DNA of 64,000 nt from Candidatus Sericytochromatia bacterium (lineage in GTDB: Bacteria > Cyanobacteriota > Sericytochromatia > UBA7694 > JACMQJ01): positions 312-64,311 of the forward strand of contig BPII01000001.1 in NCBI GenBank assembly GCA_026004035.1, in the 5' to 3' direction. Shown here piece by piece: positions 30,857 through 32,955 of this stretch. The translations under genes and the position numbers were made by a program. Every line of letters starts with the position of its first letter. Position 1 is the first letter of the stretch. Below the pieces are notes generated by a model. The model worked only from the letters and a program-made list of their open reading frames with translations. It was not told the DNA's origin and searched no databases.

Positions 30857-31855
30857 ATGAGTTTAGAAGGATTAAGTGCTTTAATACAATTAGAAAGTAC
30901 AAGATTAGAAGCTGCAAGAGCTGACTCATCTAATCAACAACAAATTCAATCAGCTGTTCAACAAAGAGGTATAAGTACAGCTCAAAGTAAATTAAATGCA
31001 AGTTTACAAAGAATAGATGCAAGATATACAAAGGAATGTGCTGAAGCAGATGTTAGAAAATTAGAAGCTAGACTTGCAAGATATAGAAAAGCAGAACGAC
31101 TAGCTTTACAAATAGGAGCTGTTGCTGGTGTTTTAAATTTAGCAGGTAATTTTGGTCATTTTATTTCTGATTTAGCAGGTGCTCAAAAAAATGGAGATAT
31201 TGCTAAATCTTTACAATCTCCTCCTTTAAATCCTGGGCAAGTAACGGTAAGTAGAAAACAAAGAGAAGGTTCAAGTGGAAATACTACATACATTTCAGGA
31301 TCAAATAAAGATGGTAGTGAAACAATTTATTCTTATGATGTTTCCGGTAGCGGTACAGCTGGAAATTTTAGAACAGCAACAATAACAAATCAAGATAAAG
31401 AACAAATAGGTGGTGAAGAGTATATGAAACTGAAGGAACAATTTCGAAGAGATTTGAGTTTTGCAGAAATACAAGAAATAAATCCTAAATTAGCTGAAAG
31501 AATAATGGAAGATAAATTTCATGGAATGGCAAGAGGTGAAGTTGATAATTTCTTAGAAGTAGCTAAAAGTGCTGCTCCTCTTTATGATCAACATGAAAGA
31601 ATAGAAAATGGTCTTATTAGTACTGGTAAGCTTGATAAAAATAAATTTTCAGATGGCATCAAGAGCTTTGTTAATATGTTAGTTCAAACACTACAAGATA
31701 CACAAAGATATTTTGATGCTTATTTACAAATGAAAGATAAAGCAGATACTATAGAAGAAGAACTAAGAGCAGCAAAAGATAAACTAATAGCAGCTAAAAG
31801 AAGATTAGAAGAAATAGAACAAGAAATAAATTCATTTGCTGGTAGAGGAGCATAG
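30857..31855 (+). CDS. Hypothetical protein, paralogue 1 of a tandem pair (coiled coil - hydrophobic segment - globular - coiled coil)
   Basis: Start chosen at MSLEGLSAL (TAGGAG lies upstream), matching the paralogue's MSLESLNAL. Hydrophobic LALQIGAVAGVLNLAGNFGHFI. C-terminal EEELRAAKDKLIAAKRRLEEIEQE. Confidence 0.65.
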   Translation: MSLEGLSALIQLESTRLEAARADSSNQQQIQSAVQQRGISTAQSKLNASLQRIDARYTKECAEADVRKLEARLARYRKAERLALQIGAVAGVLNLAGNFGHFISDLAGAQKNGDIAKSLQSPPLNPGQVTVSRKQREGSSGNTTYISGSNKDGSETIYSYDVSGSGTAGNFRTATITNQDKEQIGGEEYMKLKEQFRRDLSFAEIQEINPKLAERIMEDKFHGMARGEVDNFLEVAKSAAPLYDQHERIENGLISTGKLDKNKFSDGIKSFVNMLVQTLQDTQRYFDAYLQMKDKADTIEEELRAAKDKLIAAKRRLEEIEQEINSFAGRGA

Positions 31856-31857
31856 TA

Positions 31858-32955
31858 ATGAGTTTAGAAAGTTTGAATGCTTTAAAACAATTAACACAAG
31901 TAAGACAACAAGGGCAACAAATACAAGAACAAAATTTACAACAAGTTAATAATGAAGTTCAGCAAACAGGAACATCTGAAGCTCAAAGAGTTGATCAGTT
32001 AAATCTTGAAACAGCAAAAGCTGAATACGAAATGGCATTACATCAAGCTAAAGTAGAAACATTACAGAAAAAACTAGAAAGAGATCATCTTGCTACTCAA
32101 TTATCTTTTGGAATAATGATAGGTGTAGCTGCTTTATCAGCAGGAGATTTTATTTGGAACACTGCTAAAGATTTAAGTGGTGATAGATACTTAAATGATC
32201 AAAGTCAGAGACAGAAAACAGAAGGAATTGATCCTAATTCAGCAAGAACAGTAACTGTTAGAAGAGATGGAACTGATGCAACAGATAATTATACCTTTAG
32301 TTCTAACAGCGATAATAGTCAAACTATTTATTTAACATCAAAAGGTGGTAGTGACTCTGTTTCAGGAGATGTTAGAGCTGCAACTATTACAAGAGATGAT
32401 ATAAAACAAAAATTACAAGAAAAAGGTTATATTGATGAAAACGGTAATTTAACGGAAAAAGGAAAAAAAGAATTTGCAGATATATTGAAAAAAAAAGGTA
32501 TTACATCTGAAAATTTTGATGAATTAGATATAGGTATTCAAGACATGCTACTGAGCGGAAATTCTTCTCTTAGAGAAGCATTTGAAGAATTGTTTAATGA
32601 TAAATCACATACAATATTGAAAAGTGAGGTTGGTAATTATTTGGATGCAATTGGTAATTCTAGGCCATCTGAAATAAATATGGATGATGTTAAAGAAAAT
32701 CTAAAAGCAAGAGGATTATATAAAAGTGACTGGAAAAAAATTGGTGATGGATTTAAAGCAACATGGAACAATCTTGTAACTTTAGCAGATAATACTATTC
32801 CTTTTTTACAAGCATTTTTAGCAGCTCAAGAAAGAGAAAGAGAAACAGCGGAAGAATTACAAGCTGCTCTTGAAAAATTAGCAGCAGCTAAAAAGAAAGT
32901 AGATGAACTAAAGCAAATACTTATTAATGTAGGTGGTGATGGACTAGGTAACTAG
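31858..32955 (+). CDS. Hypothetical protein, paralogue 2 of the tandem pair
   Basis: Starts 2 nt after the upstream stop. Shares the N-terminus, the hydrophobic segment (LSFGIMIGVAALSAGDFIW), the VTV.R...TIY...ATIT core and a C-terminal coiled coil (AEELQAALEKLAAAKKKVDELKQ) with paralogue 1. Confidence 0.65.
   Translation: MSLESLNALKQLTQVRQQGQQIQEQNLQQVNNEVQQTGTSEAQRVDQLNLETAKAEYEMALHQAKVETLQKKLERDHLATQLSFGIMIGVAALSAGDFIWNTAKDLSGDRYLNDQSQRQKTEGIDPNSARTVTVRRDGTDATDNYTFSSNSDNSQTIYLTSKGGSDSVSGDVRAATITRDDIKQKLQEKGYIDENGNLTEKGKKEFADILKKKGITSENFDELDIGIQDMLLSGNSSLREAFEELFNDKSHTILKSEVGNYLDAIGNSRPSEINMDDVKENLKARGLYKSDWKKIGDGFKATWNNLVTLADNTIPFLQAFLAAQERERETAEELQAALEKLAAAKKKVDELKQILINVGGDGLGN

Follow-up and report, generated by a model that had tools for sequence, protein, structure and literature searches.

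A tandem pair of paralogous coiled-coil genes confined to Candidatus Sericytochromatia and its possible role as a membrane-anchored envelope complex

Background

PilN/PilO, GspL/GspM, FtsB/FtsL and HflK/HflC are encoded by adjacent, often paralogous genes and form heteromers. Pairs of the PilN/PilO type combine one membrane segment with a periplasmic coiled coil and a small alpha/beta domain, and the conserved extreme N-terminus of PilN is a docking motif. Here, we describe two adjacent genes, named A and B, from a stretch of 64,000 nucleotides of DNA of a Candidatus Sericytochromatia bacterium (assembly GCA_026004035.1, contig BPII01000001.1; this whole stretch is called the window below, and coordinates refer to it). 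Their products are paralogous coiled-coil proteins, which possibly assemble into a heteromeric complex of the cell envelope. Sericytochromatia are the uncultured, non-photosynthetic sister class of oxygenic cyanobacteria and their cell biology is almost unknown. Literature searches on the A/B family returned nothing.

An earlier reading of this DNA, made from the letters alone (the sequence-only reading), had likened the two products to hydrophobic translocators of type III secretion systems (IpaC/YopD/EspB class) or to other membrane-inserting coiled-coil proteins. As detailed below, the first comparison found no support, and the second one is in line with our results.

Results

Two paralogues in an obligate tandem

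Gene A (30857..31855, forward strand) encodes 332 residues from an ATG codon and is the 'MSLEGL' type paralogue, with a C-terminal end of the form F-x-G-R-G-A. Gene B (31858..32955), located 2 nt downstream on the same strand, encodes 365 residues, is of the 'MSLESL' type and ends with GGDGLGN. Both proteins are full-length paralogues with 30% identity from end to end (BLASTP, E 2e-24) and N-termini identical at 9 of 12 residues (MSLEGLSALIQL for A, MSLESLNALKQL for B). A Shine-Dalgarno site AGGAG, read from the sequence, occurs 5 nt 5' of the ATG of gene A (30847..30851, forward strand), and GGAG-type sites also precede A in other loci. An alternative TTG start 10 codons upstream is possible but lacks such a site. 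The Shine-Dalgarno site of gene B (GAGGAG) is located within the 3' end of gene A, which, together with the 2-nt gap, indicates coupled expression of the two genes.

This arrangement was found at every locus with enough DNA: exactly two tandem members on the same strand, the A-type first, 1-65 nt apart (window, L001, L003, L004, L006, L007, L008, L010, L011 and the contigs of P0008 and P0013). Family hidden Markov models run over all open reading frames (ORFs) of the window and loci confirmed the tandem and gave no further match in the window. The question raised by the sequence-only reading, whether homologues always occur as pairs, was thereby answered: they are A-then-B pairs wherever the available DNA sufficed. 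The same reading had correctly recorded the sizes and spacing of the two genes, their relatedness through a shared N-terminus and a Gln-rich N-terminal stretch. Among the first 80 residues, Gln accounts for 11% in A and 20% in B (hand count from the translations), against 2.8% in the long ORFs of the window.

Both proteins are rich in Ala, Gln, Ser and Gly and poor in Cys, His, Trp and Pro. The GC content at third codon positions (GC3) is 0.07 in A and 0.11 in B, equal to the window mean of 0.10, which identifies them as native genes. First and second codon positions (GC1 and GC2) reach the same height as in FtsZ and PilT, owing to the constrained Ala/Gln/Gly/Arg-rich composition. These values bear only in part on the proposal that codon usage is that of well-expressed genes. 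The window as a whole (24% GC, GC3 about 10%) is extreme for a Sericytochromatia-related genome. Genome-assigned MSLEGL-type Sericytochromatia loci (L006-L009) display 28-34% GC, and loci of the divergent subfamily described below 47-56%.

A family specific to Sericytochromatia

Word-seeded searches yielded 8 and 11 clusters of relatives, and an exhaustive profile search extended these to 57 cluster representatives among 1.84 billion proteins. When one genome of each GTDB species was scanned, four loci were obtained, all in metagenome-assembled genomes of Candidatus Sericytochromatia. A divergent subfamily, starting with MSFMSFDYAMRA and called 'MSFMSF' here, proved homologous to the family from end to end (hhalign probability 98.5%, E 3e-15), and its named entries are all from Sericytochromatia or Blackallbacteria. 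All named or genome-assigned members of the A/B family belong to Candidatus Sericytochromatia, to which the family is specific.

The family alignment displayed near-invariant termini and a centre variable in sequence and length. A-type proteins start with MSLEGLxALIQLESTRLE and B-type proteins with MSLESLxALKQL. Members range from 330 to 723 residues, the long A-type ones carrying Pro/Thr-rich insertions, and across the family the centre accepts insertions of 200 to >2000 residues.

Architecture and predicted structure

AlphaFold2 models were based on alignments of 19 sequences for A (mean predicted local distance difference test, pLDDT, of 72) and 50 sequences for B (mean 75, core 84-96). The order of elements is identical in both: helix, loop, meander sheet, helices, loop and terminal helix. 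The first helix is predicted to extend from residues 3-4 to 106 in A as well as in B and is followed by a low-confidence loop. A four-strand beta-meander sheet occupies residues 130-177 and precedes several short helices and a second low-confidence loop. The core domain so delimited corresponds approximately to residues 126-255 in A (31232..31621, pLDDT ~75-89) and to residues 125-284 in B (32230..32709, pLDDT 84-96), where the same meander and helices are accompanied by an insertion relative to A. The models end with a long conserved helix (residues 267-327 in A, 31655..31837; residues 298-362 in B, 32749..32943; all on the forward strand), whose family-wide motif is N.LV.TA.D..PYFQAYL..K.RAD.T.EEL.AA..KLAAA.KKL.

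Each protein displayed one hydrophobic segment, rich in Gly, Ala, Ser and Thr and located at the end of the first helix. It covers residues 82-103 in A (LALQIGAVAGVLNLAGNFGHFI, 31100..31165, forward strand) and 82-100 in B (LSFGIMIGVAALSAGDFIW, 32101..32157, forward strand). With Kyte-Doolittle 19-residue means of 1.37 and 1.63, respectively, hydrophobicity is marginal to borderline for a membrane span. The position is a hallmark of the family: in ~90 members the sole hydrophobic stretch was always found at residues 80-105. The second most hydrophobic stretch is the start of the C-terminal helix. In A, the segment is flanked by 7 Lys/Arg upstream and 1 downstream, and A-type proteins in general displayed 3-7 (mostly 5-7) upstream and 1-3 downstream. 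The single Gly/Ala-rich segment, the beta-looking core and the long helical termini that had been recognised by eye in the translations were all recovered by this analysis.

Searches against known families and folds

Scans of A and B against Pfam, NCBIfam, PADLOC and PHROGs gave no family match. This agrees with the sequence-only reading, which had itself conceded that no motif proved a translocator. A Pfam scan of 36 family members (E<=1) found no recurrent family and only scattered coiled-coil noise below threshold; PilN, PilO, Band_7, FtsB and DivIC were among the models left without a match. The sub-threshold noise in the family-library scans comprised TelA (0.007), LmuB (0.003) and wHTH-PRTase_assc (3e-4). 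The last of these was a Pfam match at residues 180-213 of B (21 bits against a cutoff of 27), within its insertion relative to A; it occurred in 3 of the 36 members and is probably due to chance.

Sequence searches of the PDB with the single proteins and with the 36-sequence profile gave nothing below E 0.08. Foldseek comparison of both models with the PDB (350,542 chains), a check that the sequence-only reading had recommended, returned no convincing fold match and nothing below E 0.02 (best E 0.02-0.03); likewise, the B model found no fold match in PDB and BFVD (best E 0.03). The weak matches were p32-like, Pur-alpha-like and generic coiled coils with low TM-scores, as well as coiled coils of the SMC, cohesin and V-ATPase stalk type. 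The core domain, as modelled, is without a match in the PDB although it is confidently predicted.

Giant relatives with a peptidoglycan-binding domain

The MSFMSF-type loci provided an indication of cellular location. In the three of them with enough downstream DNA, a gene for ~390 residues is followed by a giant of 2114-2725 residues and then by another very large gene (11228..19324 and 19410..>21179 in L012; 11225..17569 and 17685..>21170 in L015; 11276..19453 and 19520..>21212 in L016). Giants start with a highly conserved 75-residue helix followed by a clearly hydrophobic span. Beyond the span, the TonB-like KPEKGG repeats of the L012 giant are accompanied by a PG_binding_1 domain that scores 41 bits (cutoff 23). 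PG_binding_1 is also on record for the L016 giant, that is, for two of the three. The L014 contig covers only 540 bp of the gene downstream of the MSFMSF-type member, and its product displayed a Ser/Thr/Pro-rich linker past the span.

The N-terminal module of the giants is colinear with that of the family (hhalign probability 58%, E 1e-4), and a helix near their C-terminus aligns with the C-terminal module of the family (probability 92%, E 6e-7). Since both terminal modules align, giants are regarded as B-type members with a huge insertion, which would stand in place of B at divergent loci. The region past the segment is extracytoplasmic in these proteins, because a peptidoglycan-binding domain and TonB-like or mucin-like spacers are useful only outside the cytoplasm.

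Two further features were noted at these loci. Giants possess a conserved extra C-terminal domain, and the gene after the giant, in Sericytochromatia of the Blackallbacteria type, encodes >1300 residues on record and has no family match.

A conserved dyad upstream of gene A

A 31-bp element (TTTGTTAATAAATTATTTATTTTAACAAGAA, 30775..30805, forward strand) precedes gene A and contains the dyad TTGTTAA-N13-TTAACAA (30776..30802). It is conserved nearly base for base upstream of A in L001, L003, L004, L005, L006, L007, L008 and L010 (positions 4622, 732, 197, 30, 9838, 9889, 9902 and 7878, respectively). L009 carries a degenerate copy (position 5230) and was not used to build the matrix. The conservation is maintained despite different upstream genes and A proteins as low as 36-49% identical to the A protein of the window. 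A -10-like hexamer, TAAAAT (30822..30827, forward strand), lies at a fixed distance of 19-20 nt from the right dyad arm; ATAAAAT or TAAAAT occurs at the same distance in all eight aligned loci. When 258 kb were scanned on both strands with the position weight matrix, the element was found only at the sites upstream of A, and the exact dyad occurs once in the window. MSFMSF-type loci displayed a related motif with a longer spacing and a common ATATACGACGTGGGAA box.

These features suggest that the element is probably an operator or activator site of the A-B operon, used by a dedicated regulator. TAAAAT may represent the -10 box of a promoter otherwise devoid of a -35 box.

Genomic neighbourhood

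In the window, the neighbours of the pair include a beta-propeller gene, a RimO-like gene, CysS and tRNA-Val. The propeller gene, exported and divergently transcribed (29456..30661, reverse strand), is separated from A by a 195-bp intergenic region with 12% GC; tRNA-Val(tac) (33066..33138, reverse strand) lies 110 bp past B and was the only match of an Rfam scan. Neither a generic terminator scan nor folding of the 3' region yielded useful information. Both the AT-rich spacer and the tRNA gene exist as described in the sequence-only reading, which had taken tRNA and propeller as relevant context. This relevance was lost upon comparison. The propeller gene is retained only in the closest relative, L001, and tRNA-Val is lost even there (MurJ follows B). 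Elsewhere the flanks vary: propeller and RimO-like genes are shared by the window and L001, CoA-transferase and FtsY genes are found in L008, and NusA-IF2, methylase and sigma-70-family genes surround the pair in five loci. Since the flanks differ between loci, tRNA-Val and the propeller gene are incidental to the A-B unit. A partnership with the propeller protein was rejected, the gene being found only in the window and L001. A mobile element or tRNA-linked island was rejected as well, since GC3 equals the genome mean and the tRNA-Val and CysS neighbours are unconserved even in the closest relative.

At about 15 loci, the immediate surroundings of the pair contained no flagellar, type III, type IV pilus or chaperone gene. 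The only type III-type gene of the window is an isolated FlhB gene (1586..2779, reverse strand), standing between genes for an SLH-domain protein and a phospholipase D-like protein, 28 kb from the pair. Its product passed the cutoff of the flagellar equivalog model TIGR00328 (396 bits against 349) and not that of SctU (342 against 358). No other flagellar gene occurs in the 64 kb, which indicates that flagellar genes are scattered or present only as remnants. Two PilT-type ATPase genes in tandem (35996..38175, reverse strand) follow the pair at a distance of 3 kb, and the window contains a T2SSF-family platform gene near its end (61930..62862). Neither PilT-type nor T2SSF-type genes were found near the pair in other loci.

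Other parts of the window contain further genes outside known families. Eight consecutive ORFs of 126-571 codons (18715..26667) had no family match at E<=1e-5. They include a gene for an acidic coiled-coil protein (18715..19827) and one for a protein of 571 residues (22733..24448) that carries a Lys/Pro-rich tail and, in its C-terminal part, a hydrophobic region with multiple spans. A second tandem pair of paralogues (20204..21112 and 21158..22492, reverse strand; 302 and 444 residues) displayed a common C-terminal domain (…ISPHDDDPK.M…YGK..IGY…) and matched no Pfam or NCBIfam model. Finally, a protein of 600 residues (14651..16453) has no family match and a composition constrained like that of A and B; its C-terminal half resembles an outer-membrane beta-barrel and it ends with ...NAELRF.

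Discussion

A putative periplasm-facing complex

A and B would represent a two-gene operon for a paralogous pair of cell-envelope proteins. The interpretation that we favour, tentatively and short of calling it probable, is a heteromeric, membrane-anchored coiled-coil complex that faces the periplasm and is specific to the Sericytochromatia lineage. The first ~80 residues would form a cytoplasmic coiled coil, starting with the 12 residues that A and B share almost completely. The Gly/Ala-rich segment (~82-103) would reside in the inner membrane with the N-terminus inside, where the span of B would be the stronger one and the helix of A its weaker partner. The core domain, the insertion-tolerant site and the conserved 60-residue C-terminal helix would face the periplasm, and the complex may act as a lineage-specific trans-envelope scaffold or tether touching peptidoglycan or outer layers. 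Transcription would start at a dedicated promoter, controlled by a regulator bound to the dyad, the centre of which is ~46 bp upstream of the presumed transcription start.

A single-span topology with the N-terminus inside and the C-terminus outside is consistent with the K/R-rich upstream flanks and with the PG_binding_1 domains and spacers found past the span in giants. We infer a membrane anchor oriented in this way as the simplest reading. In this sense, the alternative of 'other membrane-inserting coiled-coil proteins' offered by the sequence-only reading holds: a conserved, marginal segment is flanked by long helices and becomes a clear transmembrane helix in the giants.

Several observations weigh against the proposed complex. 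A-type segments are weak (Kyte-Doolittle 0.8-1.8, mostly <1.5) and Gly-rich, and may fail to cross a membrane on their own; in B-type proteins, the charges on the two sides of the segment almost balance; pLDDT drops below 50 in the region of the hydrophobic segment (residues 91-115 in A). The homology of the N-terminal module of the giants is only moderately supported, and their peptidoglycan-binding domain, although proof of a location outside the cytoplasm, does not demonstrate a membrane anchor. A generic promoter scan performed no better on the upstream region than on shuffled sequences, so that the promoter is proposed from conservation only. The scaffold role is a guess from the architecture alone, and no neighbouring gene or known partner backs it.

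Alternative interpretations

The same pair could be secreted and insert conditionally into membranes, as a binary pore-former or translocon comparable to YopB/YopD or to the YaxAB/XaxAB toxins. The N- and C-terminal helices would then build a soluble stalk and the Gly/Ala-rich segment would enter the target membrane. Adjacent genes, the lack of a signal peptide and one marginal Gly-rich segment are as expected for conditional inserters; the hydrophobic stretch that opens the C-terminal helix could pack against this segment; and the genome of the window possesses a type III-type export gate gene, FlhB. Yet, this gene scores as flagellar, below the SctU cutoff, and chaperone, tip and injectisome genes are absent at all loci. 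Comparison of the 36-sequence family profile with YopD and YopB gave hhalign probabilities of 0.25% and 0.16%, respectively, the templates being single sequences of limited reach. Neither solved translocators nor ClyA/Yax-type toxins were matched by Foldseek, the toxins being absent from the best 50 matches of both models, and the HBL model of Pfam gave no match. The housekeeping neighbourhood and native codon usage also speak against a secreted pore-former, and the giants, with their peptidoglycan-binding domain and TonB-like spacers, resemble resident envelope proteins. We consider this interpretation improbable.

As for a type III hydrophobic translocator proper, this assignment found no support in sequence, fold or gene context. 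Translocator models of Pfam and NCBIfam gave no match even at E<=1, the hhalign probability with YopD and YopB stayed below 0.3%, no fold matched, and no class-II chaperone of the tetratricopeptide repeat type, tip protein or injectisome gene was found next to the pair in any locus. One marginal segment (1.37 and 1.63) and a long C-terminal helix form a layout that is compatible with translocators and not specific to them. Proteins threaded through a needle are moreover unlikely since the giant paralogues carry a peptidoglycan-binding domain.

Alternatively, A and B could polymerise in the cytoplasm as a coiled-coil heteropolymer, a cytoskeletal element like the coiled-coil-rich proteins of cyanobacteria, with the Gly/Ala-rich patch serving for peripheral attachment to the membrane. 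Long helices at both ends, paired genes, the absence of a signal peptide and the sub-threshold hydrophobicity of A-type segments would fit, as would the weak Foldseek matches to coiled coils of SMC, cohesin and V-ATPase stalk proteins. However, segments of B-type proteins and giants attain transmembrane strength, and PG_binding_1 together with Ser/Thr/Pro or KPEKGG linkers makes sense outside the cytoplasm only. This appears rather improbable to us.

Another interpretation makes A and B the building blocks of a filament or fibre, located outside the cell or in the periplasm, whose export would need no signal peptide and could use, for instance, the flagellar export gate. As in flagellin, terminal helices would build the shaft and expose the hypervariable centre. 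It would account for conserved termini around a centre with insertions from 200 to >2000 residues and for the Ala/Gln/Ser/Gly-rich composition with little Cys, His, Trp and Pro, and the window does encode a flagellar FlhB. Nevertheless, no flagellar gene stands near the pair at any locus and a hydrophobic, membrane-like segment is not a feature of axial proteins. The Flagellin and Flg_bb_rod models gave no match in Pfam, and the family profile reached an hhalign probability of only 0.1% with FlgK and FlgL of E. coli. A filament is therefore, in our opinion, quite improbable.

Least of all do we believe in a membrane-bound anti-sigma-like signalling pair, with N-terminal helices holding a sigma-70-family factor encoded upstream and a periplasmic domain sensing an envelope signal: many anti-sigma factors do combine a cytoplasmic helical N-terminus, one span and an outside domain, as A and B may, and a sigma-70-family gene of 339-346 codons directly precedes A in L006, L007, L010 and the P0008 and P0013 contigs (assigned by Pfam in L007, P0008 and P0013, by gene size and position in L006 and L010), but this gene is missing from the neighbourhood in the window, L001 and L008, its product, with regions 1.2 to 4, is group 1/2-like and not of the extracytoplasmic function type, no anti-sigma domain model or Zn-binding motif was found, and the pair owns a conserved promoter element separate from the sigma gene.

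Significance

The A/B family clearly lies outside known families, yet it is one of many uncharacterised lineage-specific families. Being restricted to one class, always in tandem and strongly constrained, the pair offers a concrete handle on a lineage-specific envelope structure. The comparison also corrects a tempting misreading, since a host-directed type III translocon is without evidence here. Until localisation and interaction can be tested in a cultured organism or a heterologous system, the practical value will stay modest.

A bolder extension of the envelope complex, which we hold to be unlikely as it stands, is that the pair and the giants may serve as the conserved base of an envelope-spanning or surface structure that has not been seen before and exists only in Sericytochromatia. 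If so, a heteromeric two-helix anchor with a new core fold would be controlled by a regulator of its own and could present domains as small as 130 residues or wall-binding fibres as large as 2500 residues. The closest non-photosynthetic relatives of cyanobacteria would then possess a cell-surface organelle of a new kind.

Comparison with known systems

Like A and B, the translocators of type III secretion systems (YopB/YopD, IpaB/IpaC and EspD/EspB) are encoded by adjacent genes, lack a signal peptide and display coiled coils, an amphipathic helix at the C-terminus and one or more hydrophobic segments, the minor translocators being of similar size. Yet, the two proteins of a translocator pair are not paralogues of each other, contrary to A and B. 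The latter further differ by the lack of sequence or fold similarity, the absence of the chaperone, tip and injectisome context, giant relatives with a peptidoglycan-binding domain and confinement to free-living or environmental Sericytochromatia.

Flagellins and hook-associated proteins share with the A/B family the conserved helical termini, a hypervariable centre able to take very large insertions and the scarcity of Cys, Trp and His. In contrast to flagellins, every member of the family displayed a hydrophobic, membrane-like segment in the N-terminal helix (residues ~80-105), and flagellar neighbours are missing. The giant B-type relatives recall TonB-type anchors through a presumed N-terminal membrane anchor, a charged Pro/Lys/Glu repeat spacer and a domain reaching the wall, but they possess neither the C-terminal domain of TonB nor ExbB/ExbD partners, and A and B of the window are devoid of a spacer.

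Paired bitopic proteins of the inner membrane, of the PilN/PilO type, resemble A and B in function and architecture only. A and B are distinguished from them by an unusually long helix of ~80 residues at the N-terminus, in front of the membrane segment, by a core that matches neither the PDB nor any family model, and by a second long conserved helix at the C-terminus.

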